DNA of 64,000 bases, from the IMG/VR virus record IMGVR_UViG_3300046051_000062. One strand, given 5' to 3'. Each line of letters opens with the position of its first letter. The first letter of the stretch is position 1. Source of the stretch: a virus. A program made the position numbers and the translations under genes. This document shows positions 31,211 through 54,614 of the stretch, piece after piece. Under the pieces are notes generated by a model that saw only the letters and a program-made list of their open reading frames with translations, had not been told where the DNA came from and made no database searches.

Positions 31211-31696
31211 GTGTTCCAAGTGGATTGACGGTGGTGCGCGGACTGCCCGCGCGGCACCGTCGAGGGACCCGCCGGGAGTCGAACCCGGTCGGGTATGGTG
31301 GTGGTGTGCAATCGGCGTCGCCAGCGTTGCATACTCCCGCTCGCTGGGCGGGCGGGCTACGTGGCTCCCACCGTCAGCGTGCCGGGTGGTCCGGCACTCG
31401 GTGGGGTGGCTGGGGTTGGATGGGGGCGTGCTTTGGGTTGTGGCCCCGAGCAGGGGTGCCTTCCCCGGCCCTTCCCGGCGGAACACGCTCGCCGTGAAGG
31501 ACATCGTGGACGGGTGGTGGCGTGGTCGGGTGGGCGCTTCGGCCCGCAGTCGCCCCACACCCCACCGCTTTGTGGTCCGTTGCGTCGCGTTTCGGTGTAT
31601 TCCACCGCATTGCACCTAAACCTTCCGGTGCCGCTGCCCGGGTGCTGGGGACGAACCATCTGGCCCCTCTCGGGACAGAATGTGGGGGTTGTGCCC

Positions 31697-32119
31697 CTAC
31701 GTCTCTGCTTTTTCCACGTCGAGGTCCAGTTCCTCGGCGATGTCGCTGACGTTGGACTCGTGGGCCTCGCGCGACGACCGGGCGCCCCCGACGGACGCGC
31801 CGGTGTTGCGGTCCAGTTCCAGCGCGTCCATCAGCAGCCCGGACGCCTCGTTGCCGGTGATGATGGGTTGGAACGCGTGGACTGACGGGATGCCCCGGGC
31901 GTCGCGGGCGAGCGTCTGTTCCTCGGCGATGGCCTCCGCGAACACGAGGCTCGGATAGTCCTCCATCCCGTAGGCTTTCAGGAACGCCTCGGTCGCGTCC
32001 TCGCTGAACGGACCCAACACCTTGAACGCCTTCTCGGGGAAGTAGTAGCTGTCCCCGTCCATCTCGGTGAGTTCGGCGAACGCTTCTCCTTTCGTGAGTT
32101 CTTCATCTATATCGGTCAT
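31697..32119 (-). CDS. Array ORF, hypothetical
   Basis: Acidic ORF; repeat at 32129. Confidence 0.75.
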   Translation of the reverse strand: MTDIDEELTKGEAFAELTEMDGDSYYFPEKAFKVLGPFSEDATEAFLKAYGMEDYPSLVFAEAIAEEQTLARDARGIPSVHAFQPIITGNEASGLLMDALELDRNTGASVGGARSSREAHESNVSDIAEELDLDVEKAET

Positions 32120-32169
32120 CTCTGGTCAGCCCCTCTCGGGGCGATTTCGTGGTGGTGCGTGGTGGGTGG

Positions 32170-32559
32170 CTACTCGATGTCGATTTCGGTTTCGCTGCAT
32201 CGCTCCACTATTTCATCGGGGAGTTCGAGCGGTGGGAAGTTGTACTGCTCGACTGTCTCGGAGAGTTCCATGCGGCGCTCCTTGCTGCGGAATCCCATCT
32301 CCTCGATGGCGTCCTGGCTGTCGCCGCCGACGACCATCCCGGGGGCCTCGCGGTAGGTGTCGAGAAACAGCTTCGGGTTCTGGTAGACGAGGTGGATCTG
32401 GAGGGCGCTCACGCGCTCGGCCTCCTCGACTGCCCCCATCGTCAGCGACTTCTCCGCGCCGGCAGCGAGAGACGCCAGCGTGGAGACGAAGTTGCGTTCG
32501 TTGAGGTGGAGTTCGGTCGGTTCGTCGGGGTCGTCGTCGTCAAGTGCGTCGGGATTCAT
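32170..32559 (-). CDS. Array ORF, hypothetical
   Basis: Repeat at 32569. Confidence 0.75.
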   Translation of the reverse strand: MNPDALDDDDPDEPTELHLNERNFVSTLASLAAGAEKSLTMGAVEEAERVSALQIHLVYQNPKLFLDTYREAPGMVVGGDSQDAIEEMGFRSKERRMELSETVEQYNFPPLELPDEIVERCSETEIDIE

Positions 32560-32601
32560 GGGTAGGTATCCCCTCTCGGGGCGGGAGGGTGGTCGTCGGG
32601 G

Positions 32602-32949
32602 TTATGCGCCGTCTGCCGCCATCTCCGTCAGCAGCACGTCGATGTCGATGATGTCGCCGTCGCCGACGCCGTAGAGGCTGCGTTTGCGGGATGGGATGGT
32701 GATGCGTCCGCTGCGTTGCACGATGAGGTCCAGCGCCCAAAACTGGACGCCCTCGGCGGTGATGCGGAGGTCCACCACGTCATCCTCCTCGATGTCGTGG
32801 CGGTCCCGGAATCGCGCCGGGATGATGATGCGTCCGTTGTCGTGAACCCGCAGGTCGGGGACACCGAACGCCTCGTCGTCGGGGTCGCGGTTCTCGTCTG
32901 TCGTCTGTGACATGTCGTCGTTCACCTGGTCCGCGTTTGGGTCGGTCAT
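32602..32949 (-). CDS. Tandem AbrB/MazE-domain protein
   Basis: Two GRIxIP motifs (NGRIIIPARFR, SGRITIPSRKR); repeat at 32970. Confidence 0.85.
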   Translation of the reverse strand: MTDPNADQVNDDMSQTTDENRDPDDEAFGVPDLRVHDNGRIIIPARFRDRHDIEEDDVVDLRITAEGVQFWALDLIVQRSGRITIPSRKRSLYGVGDGDIIDIDVLLTEMAADGA

Positions 32950-33014
32950 GCCTTAGTAATGTTGGATGTGCCCCTCTCGGGACAAGAACGGGAGGCTGTG
33001 CCCCCCCGGCGTGA

Positions 33015-33497
33015 TCAGCGGTACTCCCGGTGTTCGGAATAGCGATGCTCGCCCTTTTTACTGTCGGCGACCTCGTGGGGGTCGGCCGCCGGGTCTGTGT
33101 TCAGCCCGGTGCGCACGTCCCGGAGGAACAGTGCGGCGTCCTTGAAGTCGTCGCCGTCCTTGCGTTCGACAGACATCCAGAGCGCGGCCATCTCCAGCAG
33201 GATGAGGTCGGCCACCTGCCCCTTCGCGGGGGACGGAGTGTAGTCCTCGTCCCGTTCCTCGGCCCCCTCGATGACCGTATCGACTCGGAGGACATCGTTC
33301 GTGAACCGCCCTGCCGTGTCGAACATGGCGGCCAGGTCGGAGTCGCCGTAGTGGCGGCGCAGATGGTCCGCAGCAACGACCGAGGCGACCCCGGCGGCCA
33401 TCAGCAGGTCACGGTGGTCGGGCGCGGAGAGGCGGATGTCACCCATCTCTGTGTCGGTGCTGGCGTCGTATCGAAACTCGCCGTGTGGTCGTTCCAT
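33015..33497 (-). CDS. Array ORF, hypothetical
   Basis: Repeat at 33507. Confidence 0.75.
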   Translation of the reverse strand: MERPHGEFRYDASTDTEMGDIRLSAPDHRDLLMAAGVASVVAADHLRRHYGDSDLAAMFDTAGRFTNDVLRVDTVIEGAEERDEDYTPSPAKGQVADLILLEMAALWMSVERKDGDDFKDAALFLRDVRTGLNTDPAADPHEVADSKKGEHRYSEHREYR

Positions 33498-33573
33498 GGT
33501 GGTTTCACCCCTCTCGGGGCGGTTGTGCGCGGGAGTCCACGCTGGGGCCCCACGGCGTTAGCCGTGGGTTAGC

Positions 33574-34200
33574 TTACGGTGCGTCATCGAGCAGGGCAGT
33601 TGCCCACCGGATGGGGTTGTCGTTCGCCGCGCGGTACGACGTGTCGGCGGTGTCCTCCAGGGTGGAGGTTTCGATGAGACGGGCCAGGACTGTCGCCGGA
33701 ACGGCGACCGCCCCGCCGTGGGCTACCGGCGAGTAGTTGAACTGGCGGTCGCCCACGTCGGTGACGGTGGGTGACACCTCGTCGTTGTCGCGGCGGTCGA
33801 GCAGGCGGGTTGCTGCGAACTCCGCCCACTTGCCGTCCTGGTGGGTCCATTCCTTCTCCCAACCGCCGTCGCCGTCGGCGTAGTGGCCGTAGTACCCTCT
33901 GTCGCGGAGGGTCCCCTTGACGAGAGCCCCGACCCGCCGGGGGCCGTAGCCCATCTCCGCGAGGCCGTCGAGGTCGCTCGGCGCGCACTCGACGCAGAAC
34001 AGCCGCTTGCGGGACCACCCGTGGTGGATACTCGAAACCGTCCAGACGAACCACGCCGTCACGGGGTCACCGTGGTCGAGGTCGGTGTCGCACTCTGCGC
34101 ACGAGCAGGCGTCCTCCGACAGCGCGAACCCGCCGGTACAGCGACCAAGCACTTCGGCGTCGGACTGGTTGCTCGCGTGGTCTGCTTCTGTTCGTATCAC
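33574..34200 (-). CDS. Array ORF with zinc-binding Cys motifs
   Basis: CSCAECD...FCVEC; GTG start 5 nt after the repeat at 34206. Confidence 0.7.
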   Translation of the reverse strand: MIRTEADHASNQSDAEVLGRCTGGFALSEDACSCAECDTDLDHGDPVTAWFVWTVSSIHHGWSRKRLFCVECAPSDLDGLAEMGYGPRRVGALVKGTLRDRGYYGHYADGDGGWEKEWTHQDGKWAEFAATRLLDRRDNDEVSPTVTDVGDRQFNYSPVAHGGAVAVPATVLARLIETSTLEDTADTSYRAANDNPIRWATALLDDAP

Positions 34201-34254
34201 GGTATGTCACGCCCCTCTCGGGGCAGGATGGGTGGCTGTCGGGGAGTGGAGGCG

Positions 34255-34365
34255 CTACGGCGCGGGGTAGCCGTAGTCCGGGTTCTCGGGGTCGGTGAAC
34301 TCCGCGACGAACCAGCCGGTGGGGTTCGCGCCGTTCTCGAACGCCTCCTCGGACACGGTAAACAC
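34255..34365 (-). CDS. Array micro-ORF (about 36 aa)
   Basis: VFTVSEEAFENGANPTGWFVAEFTDPENPDYGYPAP; acidic, follows the repeat at 34367; start uncertain. Confidence 0.45.
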   Translation of the reverse strand: MFTVSEEAFENGANPTGWFVAEFTDPENPDYGYPAP

Positions 34366-34474
34366 CACCCCTCTCGGGGCGGGCGGGAAAATTGAGAGGG
34401 GCGTGACCCATCGGTTGTGTGCCTGTGCGACTGATGCCCCTTTCGGGGCCGAGCAAGGGTATCGCGGGCCGCGG

Positions 34475-34672
34475 TCACCGGTAGACCGCGAAGTGGTCGG
34501 CGGCCGCTATCTTCTTCGCCAATTCCGACTTCTCTCTCACGATGTCCCCGATGCCGCCGGGGACCGAGAACTGCACGTCCTCGCCATGGATGACATGGAC
34601 CGTAAGGACCCTGCCGTCGATGACGAGGGTGTCGCCCTGGTGGAGCCGGACGGGGAGGATTTCGTCACTCAT
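34475..34672 (-). CDS. Small beta-rich protein
   Basis: Overlaps the stop of the TOPRIM gene. Confidence 0.6.
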   Translation of the reverse strand: MSDEILPVRLHQGDTLVIDGRVLTVHVIHGEDVQFSVPGGIGDIVREKSELAKKIAAADHFAVYR

Positions 34673-35963
34673 CGTTCAGCCCCATCAGGTTCATCACGTC
34701 GATGTCTTCGCTCTCGATGGCGTCGTACATCTCCTGTTTCAGTCGGTCGCGCTGGCTGGCGAACGAGGGTGACACCACGTCGGTGTTGCCCTCGTCGTCG
34801 GTCGGCGCGTCTACGGCGCACTCGACGTACTCCTCGGCGTCCAGCGGCCTCGGGAGCAGCCGGTGGTCGGACCCCCTGACTGTGTCGAGGTCGATGGTTG
34901 CGCGGGTGCCGTCGTCGGTCGGGTAACACCGCGTGACGCCATCGGCCTCCTCCATCTGGTCGCAGGCGAACTCCAGCAGCCGGGATTGGAGTTCGTCGGT
35001 CAGTTCGTCCACGAGGTGTTCGACTGACCAGTATGCGGTCGAGGCGACGGCGGTTGCCTCGTCGGTGGTGATGCGTTCGCGGAATCGCAGATGCTCGCGC
35101 ATCGCTCCCACGACAATCTCACGCAGCGGGGCACCGCCCTCGCCGACGCCACCGATGGCCTCGATCTCCAGTCCGTAGCGGTCCTCGATGCCGTACTCGC
35201 GCAGCCACCGCTCGTCGTAGTCGTCCTCGACGGGCACCTGGAACCGTTCCTGTTCCCGAACGTGGTCGGACACCTGGTCGGGTTCGATGCCGATGCGGTC
35301 GACCTGGGTGATGTTGACGCCGAGTTGCTTGCTCCGCCGCTCGAAGTCTTCGGCTATCTCGTAGCCGGTCGGGTCGTAGTCGGACAGGACGAACAGTTGG
35401 TAGGACTGGTCGGGGTCGAGGTGGTGGGCCATGTCCTCGATGAGCGCCGTGGCCTCCCACCCGCCGCCGCTGACGAGGGACACCTCGAACACGCGCTGTA
35501 TCGGGAGGAGACGCCGGTAGGCGGCCTCCTTCTCTACGAACAATATCTTGTCGTCCTCGATGCTGCCGTGGGCGATCTCCCGCTGTCGGGAGTCGTCCAC
35601 GATGTTGAGCGCCCTGTAGGTGACCTCGCCGTCCGTGACCATATCGGAGAGGTACTCCGAGAGGTACTGCGAGTACCGGCGGTTGGCGTCGAACTCCGGG
35701 TCGTCCCACTTCTCGGGGAAGGCGTGCTGTAACGCGGTCTTCACGCCGGAGTACCAGAGGCCGCGCAGGGACATGCTGTCCTCGCGGCCTTGCCACGCCA
35801 GTTCGCGGTCGAGGATGCGCACGAGGTCTTTGATGATCCGCTTCGGCGAGAGGTTCCCCCGGTAGAGCCAGTCGTCCACCTGGCGGAACTCCGCTGCGGA
35901 CAGCGCCAGCGTCTCGTCCATCGACTGTGGCTTCCGTATCGTCTGTCGTTCGTCTCCTGTCAT
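34665..35963 (-). CDS. Topo VI-A/Spo11-like TOPRIM domain protein
   Basis: LRGLWYSG (5Y-CAP-like), ILFVEKEA, LSDYDPTGYEI, LEIEAI; start at the ATG after the repeat at 35977. Confidence 0.75.
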   Translation of the reverse strand: MTGDERQTIRKPQSMDETLALSAAEFRQVDDWLYRGNLSPKRIIKDLVRILDRELAWQGREDSMSLRGLWYSGVKTALQHAFPEKWDDPEFDANRRYSQYLSEYLSDMVTDGEVTYRALNIVDDSRQREIAHGSIEDDKILFVEKEAAYRRLLPIQRVFEVSLVSGGGWEATALIEDMAHHLDPDQSYQLFVLSDYDPTGYEIAEDFERRSKQLGVNITQVDRIGIEPDQVSDHVREQERFQVPVEDDYDERWLREYGIEDRYGLEIEAIGGVGEGGAPLREIVVGAMREHLRFRERITTDEATAVASTAYWSVEHLVDELTDELQSRLLEFACDQMEEADGVTRCYPTDDGTRATIDLDTVRGSDHRLLPRPLDAEEYVECAVDAPTDDEGNTDVVSPSFASQRDRLKQEMYDAIESEDIDVMNLMGLNDE

Positions 35964-36103
35964 AGTTGGTTGTCGCCCCCTCTCGGGGTGGTAGTCCCGG
36001 CGGGACTTGAACCTGCGGTCGCTGGCTTTTCTCCCGCGCAGGGGCGGGGGTGGGTGCCTGCTTGGTCCGCTGGTGCTTGAAGGTCGCACGCCGGGGGGTC
36101 CGG

Positions 36104-36346
36104 CTACTTCTTGTCGACCATCTCTACTAACTCCTCCATCGAGTCTTGCTGTGACTCGACTATTTCCTGTAGCTCGCGGATGTTCTCGGACTGCCGTTCG
36201 GCCGTATCCAATCCGTCATCCAGCGCCTCTTTTGCCGCGATGATGTCCCGGATGTAGTAGAAGTGGGCGCTCGTTGCTCCTGCGAGGCCGCCAACGATAG
36301 CGGCTGCAATGATGAACAACAGCGCCGTGCTGGTGGCGATAGGCAT
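36104..36346 (-). CDS. Membrane-anchored coiled-coil small protein
   Basis: N-terminal TM helix plus heptads. Confidence 0.7.
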   Translation of the reverse strand: MPIATSTALLFIIAAAIVGGLAGATSAHFYYIRDIIAAKEALDDGLDTAERQSENIRELQEIVESQQDSMEELVEMVDKK

Positions 36347-36349
36347 GGA

Positions 36350-37153: not shown

Positions 37154-37215
37154 CGGTCATCACGCCCCTTTCGGGGCCGCATGGCGGGCGACACCTGTCC
37201 CACCTGTTTGTGGTT

Positions 37216-37551: not shown

Positions 37552-37770
37552 ATCGGTTTGCCCCTCTCGGGGCCGAAGCGTGCTGGATAGTGGGAGGAGG
37601 GGCCAGCGGTCAACGACGAACAACAGCGCGGTCACGAACGAGTGCGCAACCACGTAGGCGGCGAACCACACGAGGCCGAATAGGTCTGCGAGGTGGCCCG
37701 CGAGCAGCGCCACGGAGATAGCGACGCCGAGGACCATGAATCCGGTGACGACCTTGTGGTTCCAGTTCAT
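37552..37770 (-). CDS. Two-TM membrane ORF, open in frame into the ASCH gene
   Basis: MNWNHKVVTGFMVLGVAISVALLAG...; repeat at 37782; no stop before the ASCH ATG. Confidence 0.55.
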
Positions 37771-38630: not shown

Positions 38631-38681
38631 TGGGTGTCACGCCCCTCTCGGGGCCGCTCGGTGATGAGGTTGGTGATCTGG

Positions 38682-39272: not shown

Positions 39273-39320
39273 GGTGGTCGTCACGCCCCTCTCGGGGCCG
39301 GGGCACAGGCCCACCGGGGC

Positions 39321-39743: not shown

Positions 39744-39786
39744 GGGTAGTCACGCCCCTCTCGGGGCTGGATGGTGGGTCGGGCGG

Positions 39787-40391: not shown

Positions 40392-40427
40392 GATGTCACG
40401 CCCCTCTCGGGGCTAAAACGCCTCTGC

Positions 40428-40628: not shown

Positions 40629-40670
40629 CGGTCGGTCACGCCCCTCTCGGGGCTGGAGCGTGCTGGCCCG

Positions 40671-40880: not shown

Positions 40881-40926
40881 GGTGGTCACGCCCCTCTCGG
40901 GGCTGGATGGTGGTGGGTGGTCGCGG

Positions 40927-41238: not shown

Positions 41239-41289
41239 GGTGGTGTCACGCCCCTCTCGGGGCCGTGGCCGGGAAAAACCCCGGGGTGG

Positions 41290-41739: not shown

Positions 41740-41781
41740 TGGTAGTCACGCCCCTCTCGGGGCCGCCCGCCACCGTGGGGG

Positions 41782-42201: not shown

Positions 42202-42243
42202 TGGTGTCACGCCCCTCTCGGGGCAAGATGGTGGTGGGTGGTG

Positions 42244-42887: not shown

Positions 42888-42936
42888 GGTTGGTCACGCC
42901 CCTACTCGGGGCAGGATGGCTCCGGGTGGCGGGTGG

Positions 42937-43236: not shown

Positions 43237-43338
43237 GGTCCTGTATTCCGGCTGCACTGCCAAAAGCCTGGTTCCGTGGGGTGGCTGCCGGGGTGGCGCC
43301 CCTCTCGGGGCTGTGGCGGGGGCGACGCCCGCCTGTAA

Positions 43339-43707: not shown

Positions 43708-43838
43708 GGATGGTAGCCCCGCTCGGGGCGTGAAGTGAGGGGCGTGACCCTGGGTGCCCTCTCGTCCGGTTGGTCTATCAGATGGTTCGGCATTGGCCCT
43801 CTCGGGCCTGGGTCCGGCGGCTGGCTCACCCGGCGGGG

Positions 43839-44597
43839 TCAGTCCTCGTCGGGGATGCGCCCGTCGTGGGACACCGCCACGTTGTTGTAGCCGCGCCGCT
43901 TGGTGAGCCGCCGCTGGATGTTCTCGATGGCACTGCTGGCCTTGTCGTCCGGGAGGTCGCGGATGTCCACCACGTAGCGGTGGCCGAGCGGGAACTCCAC
44001 CCGGGCGACTTTGCCCAGGTGGACCTCGTTGCTCGCCCACGTTTTCGCGGTGATGTCCCGCTCGTCGCGGACCATCGCCTCGATGCGGCGGTCGTCGTCG
44101 GCCACGTCCTGGCCGCGGATGCGCCAGGGGTTGTTGGTGTTCTCCTCGACGCGCTCGACCTCGATGGTCACCGAGCAGAGGTTCTCCGAGCGGTCGGACC
44201 AGTAGAACACCTCGGCCTCGACATCCTCTTGGACCGCGCCCGTGACGGGTGGGCGCTGTGGGAACTGGACGCGCTCTATCCGGTGGATTTCCTCACCGGC
44301 GGCGAGCGTCTGCGGGCTGTCGCCTTCGAGGCTGACCAGTCGCCGCTCCTCGGGGTTGTACGCGAGGTGCTGGCCGTCGTTCCAGAACCCGTAGAACCCC
44401 TCGGGGACGCTGTTGTACTTGGCCGGGCCGGTGGCTGCGCGCGACCGCACGGTCTTCTGTCGGTAGCCCGAGCGGGGCCGGTAGGTGATGTCGACCGTGT
44501 GGTGCCGAAGCGTCACCTCGGATACGTCCTCGGGGTCGACCGTCTCCGTTTTCTCCCGGTATCGCTGGTCGGCGTACTTTTTGCCTTCTTTCAGCAT
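43839..44597 (-). CDS. Array ORF, hypothetical
   Basis: Repeat at 44604. Confidence 0.75.
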   Translation of the reverse strand: MLKEGKKYADQRYREKTETVDPEDVSEVTLRHHTVDITYRPRSGYRQKTVRSRAATGPAKYNSVPEGFYGFWNDGQHLAYNPEERRLVSLEGDSPQTLAAGEEIHRIERVQFPQRPPVTGAVQEDVEAEVFYWSDRSENLCSVTIEVERVEENTNNPWRIRGQDVADDDRRIEAMVRDERDITAKTWASNEVHLGKVARVEFPLGHRYVVDIRDLPDDKASSAIENIQRRLTKRRGYNNVAVSHDGRIPDED

Positions 44598-44640
44598 GGT
44601 GTGGTCACGCCCCTCTCGGGGCCGAAGCCGGTGGTGGAAC

Positions 44641-44970
44641 CTACCCGCCGCCTGTCTGCACGACCACCGTGTCGGCGTCGCGCACGGTGGTGTTGAACGC
44701 GTGGACGCCCCACGTCGTCGGGTGGCTGCCTGCCTGGTCGGGCGTGTCGAGGCGCACCGTGTTGGCCCGGATGTCCACGACCCGGAACTCCTCGTCGTCC
44801 AGGCGGAGGTAGTCCCCGCTCTCGATGGGCACCGCGACCGGGTAGTTCCCCTCCGGGGTCCGCACCACGTCCACGTCGCCGTGGGCGTTGACGAGGCGAC
44901 GGCCCTCGTCGTCGGTGCCGTGCGTTGCTCTCCGTTTCGGCAGGTCCGTGAGTGGTTCATGGTCGCGCAT
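44641..44970 (-). CDS. Array ORF, small beta-barrel-like
   Basis: Repeat at 44975. Confidence 0.7.
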   Translation of the reverse strand: MRDHEPLTDLPKRRATHGTDDEGRRLVNAHGDVDVVRTPEGNYPVAVPIESGDYLRLDDEEFRVVDIRANTVRLDTPDQAGSHPTTWGVHAFNTTVRDADTVVVQTGGG

Positions 44971-45016
44971 GGTGGTCACGCCCCTACTCGGGGCAGGACC
45001 GCCCGATTGCGGGCGG

Positions 45017-45628
45017 TTAGTCGTCGTCTGTCATGGCGGGCGATGCGTCGTACCCCTCAGCGTGGGCTGTGACCGCGGGCGGGCGGCCGACGTAGCCGGT
45101 CGGTTCGAACCGCCACCAGCCGGTGATCTCCTTGCCCCTTGAATCCGTCTCCTGTCGAATCCGGTCGTCGCTCTCGAACACCTCGCTCTCCTGGTTGTTG
45201 ATTCGTTCACCGACCGTATCGCGGCGCTCCTGTAGGTCTGCGACCCATTCCGCGAGGTCGTCGTTCTTGAGCCACTGCGCGCCCGTGGAGTGAACCCAGC
45301 CGTTCTCGAAGACGAGCCAGGACAGGTCCTCGGGGTAGGCTCCCTCCGCGAGCCGGAGGCCGCCGTCGCTCTCGATCTGCCAGCCGTGAGCGCCGGAAGT
45401 CGCAACCGCGTAGTGCATCTCCCAGCCCTCCTCGATGGCCCGGTGAAACCGGCCGGTGTCCTGCTCGACCGCTCCATCGCGGTGGCCGAAGGCATCCGCG
45501 AGCCGCTGGTCGAGGCGACCCCGGAGCTTGCTCGCCTTCGCGTGGTCCATCGACGTGTCGAGGCGCTGCTTGCGCTCAGTTCGGTTGTCACCCGTGCCGG
45601 CGTCAGTGCCGGTGTTGTCGTTAGTCAC
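45017..45628 (-). CDS. Array ORF, hypothetical
   Basis: GTG start; repeat at 45634. Confidence 0.75.
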   Translation of the reverse strand: MTNDNTGTDAGTGDNRTERKQRLDTSMDHAKASKLRGRLDQRLADAFGHRDGAVEQDTGRFHRAIEEGWEMHYAVATSGAHGWQIESDGGLRLAEGAYPEDLSWLVFENGWVHSTGAQWLKNDDLAEWVADLQERRDTVGERINNQESEVFESDDRIRQETDSRGKEITGWWRFEPTGYVGRPPAVTAHAEGYDASPAMTDDD

Positions 45629-45697
45629 GGTTGGTCACGCCCCTACTCGGGGCAGGGCCGCCCACTCGACGGCGGGCGGTAGTTGCGGACTCCCTGG

Positions 45698-46609: not shown

Positions 46610-46655
46610 GGTGGTCACGCCCCTCTCGGGGCAAGGAGTGGTTGGTGGGGCCGGG

Positions 46656-46928: not shown

Positions 46929-46993
46929 GGTGGGTCACGCCCCTCTCGGGGCGGAAATGGGTGTGGACACCCCTCTTGTTCTCGCGTGGTGGT

Positions 46994-47239: not shown

Positions 47240-47309
47240 ACGTACATTAATTCACGTTGCCCCTCTCGGGGCCGATGGGTGGTGGGTCCCCGCAGGGGCC
47301 GCCGTCCGG

Positions 47310-47729: not shown

Positions 47730-47780
47730 GGGTCGGTCACGCCCCTCTCGGGGCAGGGGGCCACGACCACGGCTCCGTGG

Positions 47781-48089: not shown

Positions 48090-48139
48090 TGTGGGTCACG
48101 TCCCCTCTCGGGGCGGTTCATGGTGGTGGTCCGTGGGGG

Positions 48140-48349: not shown

Positions 48350-48450
48350 GGGTGGGTCACGCCCCCTTCGGGGCTGTGAAGGGGTGAAGCCCTTGGCGGG
48401 TGATCCCCACCGTGGGCCACCCCTCTGTCGGAGCCGGGGGTGCGACTCCG

Positions 48451-48831: not shown

Positions 48832-48870
48832 CGGGGTCACGTCCCTCTCGGGACTGGACGGGGGGAGTAC

Positions 48871-49311: not shown

Positions 49312-49363
49312 GGGTGGTCACGCCCCTCTCGGGGCCGAAGGCGGGCGCCCGCCCGCCGGTTGG

Positions 49364-49750
49364 TTAGTAGTCGAACAGTTCGTCGCCGGGTGCATCATCC
49401 TCGTAGAAGGCGACGGCGGTCATGTAGCCGTGGGCGAAGTCCCGGGCACGGGTCCGGTCCCCGGCGGGCGGGGCCATGGCCGTGGGGGTATCCCCCGCCA
49501 GCGGGCGGACGAACCCCATCAGGTCAATCGTGCCGTGTTCGGGGTACGCCAGGACGAACCACGTGCCGTCGCCGGTTCGCCCGAGTAGCACCTGGTGGCC
49601 GTTGGCGAACAGGTACGCCTCCTCGCCGCCGGCGTCTCGCTGGTCGGGGTCGAACCGAGTCCAGCCCGGCGGGAGCCGCTCGTCGGGCATACCCTGGGCC
49701 TCCTCGTTGTCGATGCCGTCGCGCAGGTCGGGTCCATCGTACTCTGTCAT
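49364..49750 (-). CDS. Array ORF, hypothetical
   Basis: Repeat at 49757. Confidence 0.7.
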   Translation of the reverse strand: MTEYDGPDLRDGIDNEEAQGMPDERLPPGWTRFDPDQRDAGGEEAYLFANGHQVLLGRTGDGTWFVLAYPEHGTIDLMGFVRPLAGDTPTAMAPPAGDRTRARDFAHGYMTAVAFYEDDAPGDELFDY

Positions 49751-49789
49751 TGTCGGGTCACACCCCTCTCGGGGCCGGACGGGGGGTGG

Positions 49790-49951
49790 CTACCCCGCTA
49801 TCTCGCGGACGGGGCGGCAGAACGCCCCCACGTCCACACCGCCGCTTTTGGCGCAGTCCCGGCAGGCGATTAGGTCGCCGTCCGGGTGCCACACGTCGGT
49901 GGCGGGGTCGGTCGGTTCAAGCGCATCGTCGCAAATGTCACAACGGTACAT
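49790..49951 (-). CDS. Array micro-ORF, zinc finger (53 aa)
   Basis: MYRCDICDD...IACRDC; repeat at 49957; not in the ORF track. Confidence 0.65.
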   Translation of the reverse strand: MYRCDICDDALEPTDPATDVWHPDGDLIACRDCAKSGGVDVGAFCRPVREIAG

Positions 49952-50060
49952 AGTGGGTCACACCCCTCTCGGGGCCGACGGGTAGGCGGCTGGAGCGTGT
50001 GACAACTCGCCGCCTGTCGGGTAGGGGGTGGGCCTCTCGGCCCCGAAAGTGGGCGGGTGG

Positions 50061-50438
50061 CTATTCGTGGCGGCCCGGGTCGGCGTCCAGGTCGGCGAGC
50101 GCGTCGTAGGCGCCGCGTTCCCAGGCCCGCAGGAGCGAGCCGAACACCCGGGTGGCTTCGGTCAGCCGGGCCGCCGCCGGCTCGTCCTCCTCACAGCCGG
50201 GCTTGATGGCCGCCACCTGGCGGTTCTCGTTGTACGTCCCGTGGCCCCGGTCGGCGTGGCCGGCCATGGCCCGCAGGTCCGGGAGGACGTGGTTCGCGTA
50301 CCGCGCGGACTCCCGCAAGCCGTCGATGTCCGGCTCGGCCTCGTCGGGCAGGTCGGTGTCCGAGAACTCCTCGTAGCCCTTGCGGTACGCCTCCTCTCGC
50401 CGGTAGTACGGTTTCACGACCGCTATTTCGTCGGTCAT
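50061..50438 (-). CDS. Array ORF, hypothetical
   Basis: Repeat at 50444. Confidence 0.7.
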   Translation of the reverse strand: MTDEIAVVKPYYRREEAYRKGYEEFSDTDLPDEAEPDIDGLRESARYANHVLPDLRAMAGHADRGHGTYNENRQVAAIKPGCEEDEPAAARLTEATRVFGSLLRAWERGAYDALADLDADPGRHE

Positions 50439-50485
50439 AGTGGGTCACGCCCCTACTCGGGGCAGGACCGCCCGAATCCGGGCGG

Positions 50486-51034
50486 TTAGTCGTCGTCGTC
50501 CAGGCCGGCCACTACGTCCTCGCGGGGTATCCAGGAGGTGTCCCCGGCGTCGCCGTAGGGACGGAACTCCTCGGCCAGCATGATACGAACCTCCGTGCCG
50601 TCCTCGGCCAGCAGGAACGCTTCGGCGAACACGCCCATGCCGTCGGGGTCACGCACCTCGACCACCGGGTCGGGGTGGGCACCACCGTCGTCGTAGATGA
50701 GGACGTTGGTCTGGAGTCGCCGGAGGCAGGACCCACAGGACGCGCCTGGGTAATCGAACTCGTCGGTGCAGGCGACGACCCCCACGCCGAACCCGTTGCT
50801 GTCGTGGTGTCCGGCGGGCAGCGATTCGACGGTGTACTGCTCGCCGTCGTCGGCGCTCACGACTTCGATGTCGCCCGCGCACTCGGGGCAGTACGCCTCG
50901 CCGTCGTAGACGTAGCCCGCGAGTCCGCCGGGGACGTACCCCCCGCTCTCGCCGGGCGTCCGGCGGGCGGCCGGGGCCAGGTCGCCGGGGTCGTCGGTCA
51001 CGTCGTCGGCTGTTAGGACTGCGATTACGGTCAT
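50486..51034 (-). CDS. Array ORF with Cys motifs
   Basis: YCPEC...CGSC; repeat at 51041. Confidence 0.75.
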   Translation of the reverse strand: MTVIAVLTADDVTDDPGDLAPAARRTPGESGGYVPGGLAGYVYDGEAYCPECAGDIEVVSADDGEQYTVESLPAGHHDSNGFGVGVVACTDEFDYPGASCGSCLRRLQTNVLIYDDGGAHPDPVVEVRDPDGMGVFAEAFLLAEDGTEVRIMLAEEFRPYGDAGDTSWIPREDVVAGLDDDD

Positions 51035-51077
51035 GGTCGGGTCACGCCCCTCTCGGGGCTATAACGGAGTGGGGTCG

Positions 51078-51482
51078 TTAGCGGGTGGACGCCACCACTT
51101 CGACGTGGGCGTTGTCTTCCAGCACCGACAGGACAGCCGGGGGAACGTCCCCGAGGGTCGCGTCGACCCGCTGGGTCGGCGGGGCGCGGCGGTACTCCGC
51201 GTATGGAGCGTGCCGGTCGGTCTTGAGCGGCGTGTAGACGTGGGCCTTGGGGACCAGGGACACCTCTCTCGGCCGGTCGTCGCCGAGTTCGGCGTCGGAG
51301 TCGAACAGCCACTTGTCCGTCGCTGCGTCGTCGCTGTGCCGCTTGACGACGACTGTCGTCGGCGCCGGGCCGTTCATCCACACCTGCCGGTGCACACCCG
51401 AGGTTCGGTAGGCTTCGGGTCGGTCGGCCGGGACTGGAACGCCATCTTCTACGGTTGTGTCGGGATAGTAACTGACTCTCAC
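51078..51482 (-). CDS. Array ORF, hypothetical
   Basis: GTG start; repeat at 51490. Confidence 0.7.
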   Translation of the reverse strand: MRVSYYPDTTVEDGVPVPADRPEAYRTSGVHRQVWMNGPAPTTVVVKRHSDDAATDKWLFDSDAELGDDRPREVSLVPKAHVYTPLKTDRHAPYAEYRRAPPTQRVDATLGDVPPAVLSVLEDNAHVEVVASTR

Positions 51483-51539
51483 GGTAATCTCACGCCCCTC
51501 TCAGGGCAAAATGGTGCTGGGTGGTGGGGGTGGTTGGGG

Positions 51540-51956
51540 CTACGCCGAAAGCTCCATATCGCCGACGGGACTGTCGGGGAGTGACGCCTCGCGCGTCGTC
51601 GCCGCCCCGTTCACCTCCTCTACGATCTTCACCACGAACCGGGGGTAGTACTCGACCGCCCGCCGGAGCAGGGTGCCCTCCGCCTTCTCGGCGGGGACCT
51701 GTCCCCCCCGGGTGTTGGGGTGGGTCTTGCTGACGTAGAGGGTCCCGCTGGGGTGGACGGTGTAGTAACAGGGCGCTCCCGGTTTTGAGGCCTTGACCGT
51801 CATCGGGCCGACCCCTGACCCCCCGGCGCTCCGGGGCCTCGTCACGCTGGTCAGACGCTCGGCCTCGTCCCTGTCCCGAAGCCAGTCGCGGAGTGCTTCG
51901 TCGGATTGTTCGAGTCGTTCGACCGCTGTCTCAAGTTCCTCGATTGCCTCGGCCAT
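51540..51956 (-). CDS. Array ORF, hypothetical
   Basis: Repeat at 51961. Confidence 0.7.
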   Translation of the reverse strand: MAEAIEELETAVERLEQSDEALRDWLRDRDEAERLTSVTRPRSAGGSGVGPMTVKASKPGAPCYYTVHPSGTLYVSKTHPNTRGGQVPAEKAEGTLLRRAVEYYPRFVVKIVEEVNGAATTREASLPDSPVGDMELSA

Positions 51957-52005
51957 GGTATCACGCCCCTCTCGGGGCCGAACCACCCGACAGCGTGCTG
52001 GGTGG

Positions 52006-52470
52006 TTAGCAGTGTTCGTCGGGGTCGATGCCGTGGCTGTCGAGTATCTCCGGGTACGGGTCGCCCGTCCGGTAGCCCGACTGGCCGTGGTAGTGCGTCA
52101 GGTCGGCGACGTAGTAGGCCGCCCGCTCGAAGAACCGGGGGCTGTCCGGCTCCGGCGACGCGCCGGCGAGCCCCCCGCTTTCGTGGAGCGACCGGAGAAT
52201 TCGTTGCATGCCCTCGGTGAACCCGTTGGCGGGGTCGCCGCCTTCGAACACGTCGTCCGGGTAGAACTGGTAGGTGGTGACGTGCTGGCGGTCGTCGTCG
52301 GCGTCCGCGCTGGCGGTAATCCTCGCCCACGGGACTGTCACAACGACCTCCCAGCACCCCAGGTCCGGGTCCCACCGGACGAACTTGCCGCCGTGTGGTT
52401 CCGGGTTCGCGTCGCCATAGTTCTCCCACTCCCGGGAGAACTCCTCGGTTGGGATTGCGCCGTCGGTCAT
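52006..52470 (-). CDS. Array ORF, hypothetical
   Basis: Repeat at 52477. Confidence 0.75.
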   Translation of the reverse strand: MTDGAIPTEEFSREWENYGDANPEPHGGKFVRWDPDLGCWEVVVTVPWARITASADADDDRQHVTTYQFYPDDVFEGGDPANGFTEGMQRILRSLHESGGLAGASPEPDSPRFFERAAYYVADLTHYHGQSGYRTGDPYPEILDSHGIDPDEHC

Positions 52471-52515
52471 GGTTGGGTCACGCCCCTACTCGGGGCACCA
52501 AAAGAGGGTAGGGTC

Positions 52516-52833
52516 TTACCCGACGACGGGGCCGTAGCCCTCGCGGGCGCGGTCGAGTCCGTACACGCCGTGATGTAGCGGCGTCTCCTCGACCGGAACG
52601 TACTCCGAATCACCCCACACCTCGCCGAACTCCATGCCGTGCGGGAACTCGTCGGAGGGGTACAGGTTGTACGCCCCCTCAACGTGGCTGGCGACCAGCC
52701 ACCGTCCCGTTTGGCCGTCGTGGTAGATGTACGCGGGGTTGCGGTCGTACCCCCACTCGTAGGCGAGGCCGTCGTCGGAATTTCCACGGACTTTGCGGTG
52801 GATTTCTTGAAGCCTTTCGTCACTCGTTGGCAT
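52516..52833 (-). CDS. Array ORF, hypothetical
   Basis: Repeat at 52838. Confidence 0.7.
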   Translation of the reverse strand: MPTSDERLQEIHRKVRGNSDDGLAYEWGYDRNPAYIYHDGQTGRWLVASHVEGAYNLYPSDEFPHGMEFGEVWGDSEYVPVEETPLHHGVYGLDRAREGYGPVVG

Positions 52834-52879
52834 GGTGGTCACGCCCCTACTCGGGGCTAAAAGTCGGGGAGGGGCCGGG

Positions 52880-53272
52880 TTAGACGGTAATGGTCATGCC
52901 GTCCGTGAAGTCCCGGCGGCCCTCCGGCGTCTCGACGTACCACTCAAAGTCCCGCTGGATCACCGTGTAGCCCGGCGGGGTGTGGCGGTTGATGCGCTGT
53001 TTCGTCGTCCTGGTTCGGTGGCCGCACGAATCCAGGCGGTACGTGTCGCCGTCCCGGACCACCACCGGGCTGTGGTGGTAGTAGTAGACGGTCACGCCGT
53101 CCACTTCAACGATCACGTCCCGGTAGGCGCCCCGGTCGGTGTCGTTGGAGCACCCACAGCGGGGGTGGCCTCGCGGGCCACTCCCGGGCTGGTGGTAGGC
53201 GTCCTGGTTGGTCACGGTACCGCGGTCGCACGCGTCCCAGTAGTCCGGGACGGGTAGGCTCTTGGCCGTCAT
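52880..53272 (-). CDS. Array ORF, phage-type hypothetical
   Basis: TRTTKQRINR...QRDFEWYV...FTDGM pattern; repeat at 53279. Confidence 0.7.
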   Translation of the reverse strand: MTAKSLPVPDYWDACDRGTVTNQDAYHQPGSGPRGHPRCGCSNDTDRGAYRDVIVEVDGVTVYYYHHSPVVVRDGDTYRLDSCGHRTRTTKQRINRHTPPGYTVIQRDFEWYVETPEGRRDFTDGMTITV

Positions 53273-53326
53273 TGTCGAGTCACACCCCTCTCGGGGCCGG
53301 TGGGGGCGGGGAGTGCCCCCGCGCCG

Positions 53327-53494
53327 TTAGCGGGTTATCATCAGCCGGTCGTCCGCACACTCGCCGCAAGCAGCGCGCGGGGCGAGTCCGGCGTAGACAG
53401 TCTCAACCGCTTCGACTTGCCGGTGCCCGCAACCCATGCACTCGAACGTGTACTCGGTCAATTCCGGCGGGCCTCGCTTTGGTGGTTGGGTCAT
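53327..53494 (-). CDS. Array micro-ORF, zinc ribbon (55 aa)
   Basis: FECMGCG...ACGEC; repeat at 53519 plus an extra GGGGGG/CCCCCC hairpin before the ATG. Confidence 0.65.
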   Translation of the reverse strand: MTQPPKRGPPELTEYTFECMGCGHRQVEAVETVYAGLAPRAACGECADDRLMITR

Positions 53495-53566
53495 TATCTC
53501 GGGGGGGTCAACCCCCCGGTCACGCCCTTCTCGGGGCTCTAACGGGGTGGAGGCGGGGACCGCCCG

Positions 53567-53872
53567 TCAGTCGCTCCCCGCGAGACGGGGGGCCATGGCG
53601 GCCAGTCCCGCGACGGCGACGTGCAGGGCGTCGGTGTCTCCATCCATCACTGTTTGCTCGTACACCCGGTCACCGTCGCCGTCGGGGTGATCGAGGAACC
53701 GTACCAGCCGAACGGTCGTACCGCTCCGGTCGGCCCGGTGTATCACCTGAATGTGGACCCGGTGGCGCTCGCACCGCCACGTCCGGGTTCCGTGTCCGTC
53801 GTTCAACGCCCACCCGTCCGGTAGTCGGTCGGCCGGGGTCGGGGCGGGGAGATTCGTGGGTACTGATGTCAT
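53567..53872 (-). CDS. Array ORF, hypothetical
   Basis: Repeat at 53879. Confidence 0.7.
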   Translation of the reverse strand: MTSVPTNLPAPTPADRLPDGWALNDGHGTRTWRCERHRVHIQVIHRADRSGTTVRLVRFLDHPDGDGDRVYEQTVMDGDTDALHVAVAGLAAMAPRLAGSD

Positions 53873-53923
53873 GGTCGGGTCACGCCCCTCTCGGGGCAGG
53901 TGGTTCAGCCCCCCACCGGACGC

Positions 53924-54061
53924 TTACACGTCGGCGGGGTCGTCGGGCGAGTAGTCGGTCCCGGCGTGGGACAGTTGGTCGTCCACGGTCCACCGCGGGT
54001 CCGTGTCGTCGCGGTCGTCCAGCGGTTCGCCTGGGGTCTTGAGTAGGTCGTCCCCTTGCAT
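53924..54061 (-). CDS. Array micro-ORF (45 aa, very acidic)
   Basis: MQGDDLLKTPGEPLDDRDDTDPRW...; repeat at 54067. Confidence 0.6.
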   Translation of the reverse strand: MQGDDLLKTPGEPLDDRDDTDPRWTVDDQLSHAGTDYSPDDPADV

Positions 54062-54100
54062 TGTGAGTCACGCCCCTCTCGGGGCAAAAACGGAGGGTGT

Positions 54101-54421
54101 CTACCCGGGGCGCTGCGCCACGTCTCCGGGTTTGCGCGGGTCCGCGAGTTCTTCGGCCGGGCAGTCAGCGACCACCAGGCCGATTTTCTTCGGCTCGGAG
54201 TGGACCAGCGAGTTGCTCACCGGGTACCAGCCGAGGCGCCGAATCAGGGCGAACACTCCCATGTCCGCCCGCCCGTCCCGAAGGTCGAAGGACAGGATGG
54301 TGGCGTCGCGGTCACGGTTCGGTTCCTGTTCGTCCGGCCCCACGACGACGAAGGACGAATCCACGCCGTCGAGTTCGAGGAGCCGGTCTTGCAGTCGCTC
54401 ATGGTCGGTTATCTCGTCCAT
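54101..54421 (-). CDS. First clear array ORF, hypothetical
   Basis: Repeat at 54429. Confidence 0.7.
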   Translation of the reverse strand: MDEITDHERLQDRLLELDGVDSSFVVVGPDEQEPNRDRDATILSFDLRDGRADMGVFALIRRLGWYPVSNSLVHSEPKKIGLVVADCPAEELADPRKPGDVAQRPG

Positions 54422-54614
54422 GTTGGGACACGCCCCTACTCGGGGCGAAGGGTCGTAGGCGTAAGTGGTGTGCCTACTGCGGTTGGTGGCCGGGGCTTCT
54501 CAGCCCTCCGGCCGGGGGATACCAGCCCCCAGCGTTTCCAGCCCTTGCTCCACCGTCGTTCGGTCGGTAGTATCCACGGTGCTGTATCTCTCTCGCACGG
54601 CCCCTTGCGGGGCC

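Follow-up and report, generated by a model that had tools for sequence, protein, structure and literature searches.

A hairpin repeat with a Shine-Dalgarno-like tail precedes the small genes of an array in a haloarchaeal virus or plasmid

The closest published analogues of the repeat described here are the PeSL-like motif of HGTV-1, the promoter-early stem-loops (PeSLs) of T4 and the SAS elements of Cluster K mycobacteriophages. HGTV-1, according to the summary in PMC3950731 of Sencilo et al. 2013, is a haloarchaeal mobile element in which nearly every gene in a one-way row of small ORFans carries the same inverted-repeat motif, proposed to regulate expression and promote shuffling. Its unit is about 100 bp long and A/T-rich, in which a clear BRE/TATA (CGAAAgaCTTAAt) precedes the ATG by about 25-30 nt and a 9-bp stem of other sequence lies far from the start, whereas the element reported here, hereafter the tag, measures 19-30 nt, is all G/C, abuts the start codon, has an SD-like tail and lacks a BRE. 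There is no sequence similarity between the HGTV-1 motif and the tag. T4 PeSLs are likewise short conserved intergenic stem-loop modules between small variable genes of hyperplastic regions, in which indels and swaps between close relatives end (PMC2839356, PMC4122927). However, they consist of terminators joined to early promoters of the bacterial sigma-70 type, unlike the tag unit, which has no promoter consensus, belongs to an archaeal host and is fixed to the ribosome-binding position. The SAS/ESAS of Cluster K phages are asymmetric conserved sequences 3-7 nt before the starts of many unrelated non-structural genes, in one orientation, with an SD core and extra conserved bases; they are kept across subclusters before different genes and have no tested function (PMC3203893). 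SAS occur in 11-19 copies per genome without a hairpin, and the inverted repeats of ESAS show no covariation of paired RNA bases, in contrast with about 50 tags before nearly every array gene, with compensatory stem changes. Halovirus HF2 also has repeated intergenic elements conserved in relatives, which are experimentally proven promoters with mapped start sites, but they number only nine, are A/T-rich and 29-58 bp long, and are not hairpins adjoining starts (PMC8707807). The preliminary description of this locus had proposed an undescribed system, which goes too far: its kind is known from HGTV-1, T4 and Cluster K, whereas the literature searched contained no report of the particular element.

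The window, that is, the whole 64-kb stretch of DNA analysed, comes from an uncultured salt-loving archaeal virus or plasmid. It contains 49 tags, with the sequence GCCCC-GAGA-GGGGC or GCCCC-GAGUA-GGGGC and in most cases a GUGAC tail. Every tag lies between 31663 and 54613 on the minus (coding) strand, and the rest of the 64 kb has none. A search with GCCCCGAGAGGGGC allowing at most one mismatch gave 37 matches, all minus, at 31663-54085, for 0.14 expected; degenerate tetraloop copies and seven pentaloop copies (GCCCCGAGTAGGGGC), found by looser searches and by reading upstream regions, complete the total. A covariance model returned 50 matches in the window, all minus and within 31655-54617, with zero outside the array. 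In nine related loci, it placed 69 of 71 matches on the coding strand, the other two being palindromic copies read in reverse. Because the array genes lie on the minus strand, the motif as first reported is the coding-strand spelling. A few copies had been thought to have the opposite orientation, but none truly does: the plus-strand matches correspond to a near-palindromic copy at 43716-43729 and to chance.

The array (31663..54613, minus strand) comprises some 45-46 small, co-oriented and unrelated genes, each preceded by a tag except for a few coupled ones. Most are ORFans; the ten largest have no Pfam match, and no paralogue families were found among array genes apart from an AbrB-like pair. 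The untagged genes at 36346 and 34672 abut or overlap the gene before them, and therefore co-transcription does occur. The hairpin ends 8-12 nt before the start codon, ATG or GTG, in 34 of 42 tetraloop copies and in all seven pentaloop copies (41/49), which confirms the initial picture of a hairpin array heading about 45 small unrelated genes at this distance. From stop codon to next hairpin there are mostly 14-41 nt, and the linker 5' of the hairpin is rich in C (about 50%) and A (about 20%).

Tags without further peculiarity, all on the minus strand like those that follow, are found (start codons in brackets) at 54072..54085 (54061), 53884..53897 (53872), 51965..51978 (51956), 51046..51059 (51034), 49962..49975 (49951), 49762..49775 (49750; a cassette traced in four other elements), 49322..49335 (GTG, 49311), 48101..48114 (48089), 47741..47754 (GTG, 47729), 46939..46952 (GTG, 46928), 46619..46632 (46609), 44609..44622 (44597), 42211..42224 (42201), 41750..41763 (41739), 41250..41263 (41238), 40890..40903 (40880), 40640..40653 (40628), 40400..40413 (40391), 39754..39767 (GTG, 39743), 39285..39298 (39272), 38641..38654 (38630), 34211..34224 (GTG, 34200), 32569..32582 (32559) and 32129..32142 (32119). 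The pentaloop copies are at 54432..54446 (GAGUA; 54421), 52843..52857 (52830), 52482..52496 (52470), 50449..50463 (50438), 45639..45653 (GTG, 45628), 44980..44994 (ATG about 9 nt downstream) and 42898..42912 (GTG about 10 nt downstream). Altered tails characterise the tags at 47259..47272 (47239), 43298..43311 (no start codon nearby), 37560..37573 (37551) and 34367..34380 (only a 33-aa ORF behind), and the tail at 33507..33520 (33497) reads GAAAC. The tag at 43716..43729 (43707) has a GAGC loop and no GUGAC tail, that at 48361..48374 (48349) a GAAG loop, and that at 37164..37177 (37153) a GAAA loop of the GNRA type. At the array ends, the tag at 54600..54613 combines a GCAA loop, also GNRA-type, with a degenerate tail, and the last one (31663..31676) a U-G wobble with a degenerate tail. 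A degenerate ACCCC..GGGGG copy at 35976..35989 directly follows a tRNA-3'-end-like stretch and precedes the gene of a Toprim-domain protein (35963).

Several lines of evidence indicate that pairing of the stem is conserved. Across the alignment, we found 15 double-change cells in four of the five pairs, and 97.8% of cells are paired; none of 500 shuffles paired as well, and slid controls scored far lower. In the window, compensated stems occur at 48841..48854 (GUCCC/GGGAC; start codon 48831) and in an orphan tag without a gene behind it at 43795..43808 (GGCCC/GGGCC). One-sided changes in the inner pairs yielded four U-G wobbles versus one mismatch. Wobbles are also found at 51494..51507 (GTG, 51482) and 32970..32983 (32949, an AbrB-family regulator), an outer G-U pair at 53284..53297 (53272), and a C.A mismatch at 53524..53537, whose start codon (53494) is 29 nt off. 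Lineages have their own stems, and in genome L023 alone CCCGCG/CGCGGG, CCCACG/UGUGGG and CCGCCG/UGGCGG coexist, all with the GAGA loop. Judging from these sequences, pairing of the stem is selected, and we infer that the hairpin acts in RNA. By itself it is worth about -10 kcal/mol, and of 34 junction RNAs, 24 contain it in their minimum-energy fold. The loop variants GAAA, GCAA and GAGUA found in the window are GNRA-type.

The 3' arm and tail, GGGG(C)GUGA, mimic the haloarchaeal Shine-Dalgarno sequence GGAGGUGA at the right spacing, the last A falling 6-7 nt before the start codon. In seven of seven lineages, the 22-30 nt 5' of tagged starts have a pairing energy of -10 to -13 kcal/mol with the 16S 3' tail, versus about -7 for shuffles and -7.9 kcal/mol for other genes of the window; the tail sequence was an assumed one that agrees with the published motif GGAGGUGA. 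In the same element, backbone operon genes are preceded at similar spacing by a plain GGAGGT. The extended SD of Haloferax volcanii, GGAGGUGA, is enriched 5±2 nt before distal operon genes, where it is thought to serve re-initiation; SD motifs in 5' UTRs do not help initiation in this species, and a perfect 8-nt SD represses it (PMC3986360). Ribosomes presumably use the SD-like part of the tag. As counterpoints, half of the SD-like sequence is locked inside the hairpin, pairing with the 16S tail requires a 1-nt bulge in the window's version, and G-rich arms by their composition alone would yield some anti-SD pairing. The idea, put forward at the outset, that each unit has its own expression signal is nevertheless supported by a covarying hairpin and SD-like tail at a fixed distance from the start.

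On the minus strand of the window, the canonical haloarchaeal BRE/TATA has a single match, CGAAAcaCTTATT at 55650..55664, which is directed into the array and also conserved in relative G5. It is followed by a GC-rich non-coding leader of about 1 kb that extends to the first tag (54614..55625, minus strand), has blocks conserved in G5 and has no match in Rfam.

Halite and hypersaline metagenomes contain a family of haloarchaeal elements in which the tag is conserved, even where the marker protein shares only 41-71% identity, and an AbrB-family protein is conserved in every array. Comparison of gene order between relatives, proposed in the preliminary description, revealed gain, loss and reordering of single genes with the tag retained, and gene content and order are therefore not fixed. 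Where cassettes are orthologous, the tag marks both limits of their similarity.

We favour the view that the repeat is an intercistronic RNA module, a hairpin plus SD in a long transcript, which also serves as a homology patch for cassette exchange; we would give this composite explanation about an even chance of being right. The whole array would be transcribed on the minus strand, mainly from the promoter at 55.65 kb and via the conserved leader. In this transcript, a very stable 4-5 bp C/G hairpin with a GAGA (GNRA-type) loop would stand before every cistron, and its G-rich 3' arm and GUGA(C/U) tail would form an extended SD-like sequence near the start, thereby permitting ribosomes to start or restart independently at some 45 unrelated small genes that are separated by about 45 nt. 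As for the C-rich 5' arm, it may be a built-in clamp over half of the SD, which could thus tune or gate initiation, and it might also shield the 5' side of the cistron. Since the same 19-30 nt are present at every junction, they would also offer homology through which ordinary recombination deletes, inserts and reorders single cassettes. Such use of the tags by recombination would explain the ORFan-rich, shuffled arrays of the relatives. The initial interpretation of the locus is partly supported.

The main alternative is a promoter in front of each cassette, which we regard as possible but rather unlikely. A T-rich block would be the TATA box and the GC palindrome a conserved spacer or operator between it and the start site, giving a leaderless mRNA per gene; a common factor, for example the conserved AbrB-family protein, or a need for a foldable spacer would account for joint control. 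In the lower-G+C relatives L018-L023, a TTTTCA-like block does lie immediately 5' of the hairpin (4-5 positions with 50-89% T, always 0-3 nt from it). This puts it at about -27 to -32 relative to the ATG, where the TATA box of a leaderless mRNA is canonically found. HF2 promoters share this geometry (PMC8707807). Moreover, L018-L023 use ATG starts only and have weaker tails. Most ORFs in one arm of HGTV-1 follow a 'TATA-like box plus inverted repeat', as summarised in PMC3950731 and as the sequence itself shows, and read-through of some 45 serial T-tract and hairpin junctions might by itself yield a steep expression gradient. However, little of the T block survives in the window and G5, where it is eroded to a single T-enriched position, many junctions reading GGCGGGCG, GCCACG or GTGCCCCG 5' of the hairpin, and no junction has a BRE (CGAAA), the sole BRE/TATA consensus being that of the array head. 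Correctly spaced GTG codons start 9 of the 45 tagged genes of the window (20%), which fits leadered mRNAs. An all-G/C spacer of 12-14 bp contrasts sharply with the -10 region, which is usually A/T-rich, and if one DNA-binding protein recognised fixed bases, compensatory stem changes inside one genome would not be expected.

Less probable still, and in our opinion doubtful, is a role restricted to RNA processing or stability. An endoribonuclease of the element or the host, or an RNA-binding protein, would recognise the GAGA-loop hairpin and the preceding U-rich stretch, and the long transcript would be cut into single-gene mRNAs or protected by the hairpin from 5'-to-3' decay, the SD likeness being incidental. 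T7 RNase III sites and cutting by T4 RegB at GGAG are phage parallels. Constancy of the loop across lineages with differing stems suggests that it is what is recognised, and many cassettes end in a variable hairpin of their own, so that cleavage between this hairpin and the tag would leave both products capped by a stem. Nevertheless, neither cleavage nor protection needs the tight 8-12 nt spacing or lineage-specific tails that all keep anti-SD pairing, and we found no candidate nuclease or RNA-binding protein among the backbone genes.

The preliminary description also envisaged dedicated gene capture with the repeat as a recombination site, which in its integron-like form, with a tyrosine recombinase acting on the tags, appears very unlikely. 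As in integrons, unrelated small genes are co-oriented, junction repeats form hairpins, single genes are gained, lost and shuffled, and a generic tyrosine recombinase (56502..57422, plus strand; mentioned as context, with no link to the tags implied) is divergent from the array head at 2-3 kb, both in the window and in G5. Yet on the integron-integrase model this integrase reaches 31 bits, for a cutoff of 265, and its best match, a generic Xer-type model, is also far below cutoff; its location is the same in relatives, which is how ordinary temperate elements behave. Measured from the hairpin, the three recent single-gene indels end at different points, and they share no cut point in it. Unlike attC, the repeat has a perfect stem in 14-19 nt without R/L boxes or extrahelical bases, and it is tied to the start codon on the 5' side of genes rather than to the cassette 3' end. 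Both the tRNA-like fragment and the integrase are compatible with ordinary integration of the attP type, which has been proposed for HF2 (PMC8707807).

That the tag is a selfish or neutral REP- or MITE-like palindrome spread through intergenic spaces with no expression role is just as improbable: its copy number, palindromic core and geneless orphans (43795-43808 and, with a GAAA loop, 34436..34449) are suggestive, but strict coding-strand orientation, a fixed distance to start codons, confinement to one array, conservation among divergent elements and compensatory stem changes all argue against it.

Two junctions deserve mention in their own right. The 72-nt junction that contains the tag at 50449..50463 is 90% identical to that at 44962-45032. 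Between the tags at 34436..34449 and 34367..34380, the transcript strand reads GGGTCACGCCCCTCTC (34394..34409, minus), an inverted partial copy complementary to the loop, 3' arm and tail of the tag.

The array at 31663-54613 consists of about 46 small genes on the minus strand, headed by a hairpin repeat with a GUGAC tail that we call the tag; a gene and its tag form a cassette, and the stretch from one stop to the next start is a junction. Searching the window for GCCCCGAGAGGGGC with at most one mismatch returned 37 matches, all on the array strand, where 0.14 were expected. Looser searches and direct reading brought the tally to 42 copies with a tetraloop and seven with a pentaloop (GCCCC-GAGTA-GGGGC). 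The tag is a perfect stem of 4-5 bp, 14-15 nt long, and GTGAC follows it directly in most copies. In 41 of the 49 copies, 8-12 nt separate the hairpin from the following ATG or GTG; most hairpins start 14-41 nt after the preceding stop, behind a linker rich in C and A. A covariance model, which the preliminary description had proposed to build, was made from the tetraloop copies only, because MAFFT could not place the pentaloop insertion; it gave 50 matches in the window, every one on the minus strand and within 31655-54617. No Pfam family was found for the ten largest array proteins. Since counts, strand, spacing, linker and Pfam-less genes all agree, the hairpin array first read from the sequence is correct, as is the remark that genes outside it lack the element. 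The few copies said to lie in the opposite orientation have to be withdrawn, with no genuine inverted copy in the window.

The element that carries the array appears haloarchaeal by its GC3 pattern and its distant virus homologues. The window has a G+C content of 64-66% and originates from a halite metagenome, on a contig of at least 90 kb. Its backbone encodes a prim-pol replicase, an SMC-like protein with RdfA, ParA, a prenyl synthase, a subtilase, UbiA and a tyrosine recombinase. Genes for a capsid, portal or terminase were not recognised in the window, and by its genes the element may be either a virus or a plasmid. The RdfA and SMC-like pair, the polyprenyl synthase and the UbiA-type prenyltransferase (5605-8170, 16057-19412 and 57512-58935) are unusual cargo for the backbone of a virus-like element. 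In one related locus, L019, positions 16183-18541 belong to a giant backbone protein (called at 2887 aa) with ADP-ribosyltransferase domains PF01129 and PF03496.

Relatives were found through a conserved 496-aa protein encoded just 3' of the array, which has 35 homologues (41-71% identical), spread over metagenome and Logan assemblies plus a single NCBI assembly, GCA_041639795.1. Searches for the identity of this marker protein and of a 562-aa backbone protein returned none. Nine marker-protein loci were fetched, and one 82-kb contig, G5, was walked over the entire array. The tag stands ahead of small co-oriented genes in all fetched relatives, and 69 of the 71 covariance-model matches in them lie on the gene strand, the remaining two being reverse readings of palindromic copies. 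Array and backbone had no megablast match in phage and plasmid collections, and the exact element was not found there, in IMG/VR or in GTDB genomes. The exact 19-mer in IMG/VR, GTDB genomes and JGI metagenome contigs yielded chance singletons, except for the short halite-type contigs L012 and L015, and the exact 14-mer in IMG/VR yielded chance matches as well as a motif present in two copies in unrelated bacterial phage contigs of high G+C. HSTV-2-type myoviruses encode a distant homologue of the marker protein, yet in them adjacent genes are tightly coupled and tag-like junctions are absent.

The tag is a genuine repeat, conserved and far from random, and is under selection as a hairpin tied to start codons. 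Its stem and loop read GCCCC-GAGA-GGGGC in the window, G5 and the related locus L020, ACCCC-GAGA-GGGGA/U in L018, GCCCCG-AGA-CGGGGC in L021 and CCCCCG-AGA-C/UGGGGG in L023. This last locus alone also contains CCCGCG/CGCGGG, CCCACG/UGUGGG and CCGCCG/UGGCGG, and the window itself has the compensated stems GUCCC/GGGAC and GGCCC/GGGCC. Among 121 aligned copies, in an alignment that was fitted to the model and is to that extent biased towards structure, for an element too short for alignment ambiguity, 97.8% of cells were paired, two-sided changes affected four of the five stem pairs (15 cells), and none of 500 shuffles matched any pairing measure. Shifting the partner by 1-3 columns abolished the signal. 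One-sided changes in the four inner pairs comprised four U-G wobbles against one mismatch, an excess that, in counts this small, hints at an RNA read from the coding strand. Almost all loops are GAGA, and the window variants GAAA, GCAA and GAGUA are of the GNRA type. The hairpin alone is predicted at about -10 kcal/mol, and in 24 of 34 junction RNAs it is part of the minimum-energy fold. No Rfam family reached its gathering score anywhere in the window. A loose hairpin scan for G-U versus A-C asymmetry was dropped, swamped by chance hairpins within genes.

Judged from its sequence, the 3' half of the tag looks like a haloarchaeal Shine-Dalgarno (SD) site, both in complementarity to 16S rRNA and in spacing. 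The extended haloarchaeal SD, GGAGGUGA, is enriched in Haloferax volcanii at 5+-2 nt from the starts of distal operon genes, where it is thought to act in re-initiation, and the published SD-to-start range is 3-7 nt (PMC3986360). The tag sequence A-GGGG-C-GUGA-C(C) corresponds to GGAGGUGA with an A-to-G change, which still pairs with the rRNA U, and one added C, and in most copies the A of GUGA lies 6-7 nt 5' of the ATG or GTG. With the 16S 3' tail, in an assumed sequence that is consistent with PMC3986360, tagged genes form a predicted duplex of -12.9 kcal/mol on average, against -7.9 for other window genes and -7.1 for shuffles. An excess of anti-16S pairing is present in all seven lineages (-10 to -13 kcal/mol versus about -7 for shuffles), with pairing bases that differ between them (GGGGGAGA in L023, GAGGGGA in L018), and backbone operon genes of the same element have a plain GGAGGT at a similar distance. 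Nine tagged window genes have a GTG start at the usual spacing, several of them with no in-frame ATG nearby. As leaderless haloarchaeal mRNAs generally require AUG, these starts fit leadered mRNAs.

The only match to the BRE-plus-TATA pattern [CG]GAAA-N1-4-YTTWD (archaeal promoter elements) on the array strand of the 64 kb is at the array head, where CGAAAcaCTTATT (55664-55650, minus strand) precedes the first tag by about 1 kb and points into the array. The junctions have none on that strand, and A/T-rich heptamers are rare at them in the window. The putative promoter opens onto a GC-rich, hairpin-rich, non-coding leader of about 1 kb (54614-55700 including the promoter, minus strand), with a counterpart at 8100-9330 of the related contig L026. 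G5 has the same head promoter (CGAAAccTTTATG), then a leader with several conserved blocks; those common to the window and a relative include GGGCGGRTTCCCGGCGC.GGGGTA.CC.GGCACGG and ACAGCACCGTGGATAC. This stretch, for which Rfam gave no match, may be a leader with RNA structure or else a long non-coding RNA. Untagged array genes starting at 36346 and 34672 overlap or abut the preceding gene, so that at least part of the array is presumably co-transcribed. Taken together, the single head promoter, the conserved leader and the coupled untagged genes favour one long transcript in which the tags would be intercistronic RNA elements. The reading that we prefer, and to which we give an even chance, is that the tag acts on a long head-driven transcript as an intercistronic RNA element that joins a clamp hairpin to an extended SD, and secondarily as a homology patch for shuffling.

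The chief rival, a promoter at every junction with a T-rich block as the TATA box of leaderless mRNAs, seems rather unlikely to us, even if the lower-G+C relatives lend themselves to it. Directly 5' of their hairpins they have such a block (TTTTCA, TTCTTT and the like; 50-89% T at 4-5 positions), at about -27 to -32 from the ATG, which is where a TATA box of a leaderless mRNA belongs by the geometry mapped at HF2 promoters (PMC8707807). These relatives also have ATG starts only and less conserved tails. The window argues otherwise: its junctions lack a BRE, the G/C-only stretches before many of its hairpins make poor TATA boxes, its GTG starts suit leadered mRNAs, and compensatory changes within one genome are hard to square with one DNA-binding protein reading fixed bases. 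A sigma-70 and terminator scan was uninformative for an archaeon, and T runs are eroded in the window. In the window and G5, the T blocks are eroded, the GUGA tails strongly conserved and GTG starts present. This contrast between lineages suggests that the ancestral module may have combined several parts, namely a weak promoter or terminator T tract, a hairpin and an SD, with lineages leaning on different ones. It is improbable that the role of the tag is purely one in RNA processing or stability. Quite doubtful, too, is that the tag is a private signal, such that an element-encoded protein or RNA reads the invariant GAGA hairpin and switches translation or processing of about 45 accessory genes together, the hairpin also being the substrate of a dedicated cassette exchange and not only of one driven by homology; if true, this would be an archaeal counterpart of the integron, built on an RNA or expression tag.

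Besides its proposed role in RNA, the tag bounds units of gene turnover. Gene content and order are not fixed in the relatives: of the 215 genes in ten arrays, 122 are without a homologue in the other arrays, the backbone genes being common to all, and shared cassettes keep a rough common order with many local swaps (families 12,1,13,3,0,7,18,4,5,21,8 in the window and 12,1,3,13,0,4,18,7,8,21,5 in G5). A comparison over 8 kb of the related locus L005 with G5, whose DNA is about 90% identical, shows three indels, each of exactly one gene and one junction, and one of these leaves an 'empty' slot with two tags. The cassette starting at 49750 was traced in five elements, with different neighbours in each; similarity begins at the tag upstream and stops after the next tag downstream, and a variable 3' hairpin of its own is kept in the window and G5. 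Gain, loss and shuffling between relatives are therefore as the preliminary description anticipated. Its placing of the breakpoints at the repeat holds in part: the three indels end within junctions and similarity is bounded by the tag, yet the ends have no hairpin nucleotide in common. Distant junctions inside the window share 40-72 nt at 82-92% identity. When contigs of four halite DNA runs were compared with the array, the sides of the listed 'joints' were 20-35 nt long, which is the repeat itself, and for this reason they were not counted as rearrangements. On sequence comparison, the turnover would fit homology-driven exchange at a shared patch, like that of the PeSL modules of T4-type phages.

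The only array gene kept in every relative examined encodes an AbrB/SpoVT-family DNA-binding protein (32602-32949), a candidate regulator of the array. Adjoining the traced cassette, the related contig L149 has a tagged one (4159-4473) for a protein with a Halo_toxin domain (PF26442), which suggests that part of the array cargo is toxin- or defence-related.

The array does not fit an integron, as neither the integrase type, nor the attC architecture, nor a fixed crossover agrees, and the idea that the tag is an integron-like recombination site is not supported. The integrase scores 31.3 bits against the integron integrase model TIGR02249 (cutoff 265) and best matches a generic Xer-type model (43.7 bits, cutoff 220); by sequence it is a generic tyrosine recombinase, whose divergent position is kept in G5, as in ordinary temperate elements. 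The tag does not have the make-up of an attC-type site, an imperfect palindrome of 55-140 nt with R''/L''-L'/R' boxes at the cassette 3' end, and the variable 3' hairpins have no conserved boxes in common. A fixed crossover point is absent among the three single-gene indels between L005 and G5. Stretches resembling a tRNA 3' end lie inside the arrays, in the window at about 35990-36020 (minus strand; GGTTCAAGTCCCGCC...ACCA) and as GGTTCAAATCCTCGC in the related loci L007 (about 8600-8640) and L005 (about 5170-5210). ARAGORN found no tRNA gene in the window. By analogy with the proposal made for the HF2 tRNA-like gene, these stretches may form attP-type sites with the integrase.

The preliminary description presented the array as a candidate for an undescribed system. 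The motif was not found in a relevant context in the literature searched, but its kind is known, and in view of the parallels with the HGTV-1 motif, the start-associated sequences (SAS) of mycobacteriophages and PeSL modules, the tag is a new variant and not a new category. Cluster K SAS are nearest in position and SD content: like them, the tag is asymmetric, lies a few nucleotides before the starts of unrelated genes in one orientation and contains an SD core. The likeness is functional only, with no sequence relation and a different host domain, and SAS, of which a genome has 11-19, do not form hairpins (PMC3203893). Within this host group, the closest published precedent is HGTV-1, with a conserved 'TATA-like box plus inverted repeat' ahead of most ORFs in one genome arm (PMC3950731), although its unit, in the region read here, is about 100 bp long and A/T-rich, with obvious BRE/TATA boxes and a stem unrelated to the tag. 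The tag shares with T4-type PeSL and the HGTV-1-like motif a short conserved stem-loop module between variable small genes, with indel or swap end points in the module, and PeSL modules show the same shuffling behaviour (PMC2839356, PMC4122927). HF2 intergenic repeats are few and are mapped promoters (PMC8707807). As for the promoter that belongs to a PeSL, relatives have a T-rich block at TATA distance, which is eroded in the window, where the junctions have no BRE.

Leaderless mRNAs are believed to carry most translation in haloarchaea, where the use of SD sequences is disputed. With its covarying hairpin and extended SD repeated ahead of about 45 consecutive genes, the array provides a natural, highly replicated test bed for SD use, covering SD-dependent initiation or re-initiation and structure-gated initiation in archaea. 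For annotation, the tag pinpoints the starts, GTG included, of dozens of ORFan microproteins in uncultured haloarchaeal elements and flags the accessory or host-interaction region of such elements. Shuffling via a shared regulatory patch was known for T4-type phages, and for HGTV-1 it had been suggested; the array adds a further archaeal element family, whose patch differs in kind from both.

Some tag copies depart from the usual arrangement. The pentaloop copies at 42898-42912, 44980-44994, 45639-45653 and 50449-50463 have identical flanks of 26-31 nt (TCCTGCCCCGAGTAGGGGCGTGACC). Short-read contigs from the source sample end exactly at the pentaloop repeats, because these are as long as the assembly k-mers, and the order of the segments between them therefore rests on the scaffolding of the original assembly. 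At 43839-44970, a single frame begins with the ATG that follows pentaloop tag 44980-44994, runs without a stop across tag 44609-44622 and closes at 43839. It represents either two cassettes fused through stop-codon loss or a long ORF called in error, its G+C at second codon positions being unusually high. Lastly, an inverted partial copy lies between two orphan tags at 34394-34409, where the array transcript reads GGGUCACGCCCCUCUC, the complement of loop, 3' arm and GUGAC tail in other copies; it could be an anti-tag, or simply a recombination scar.
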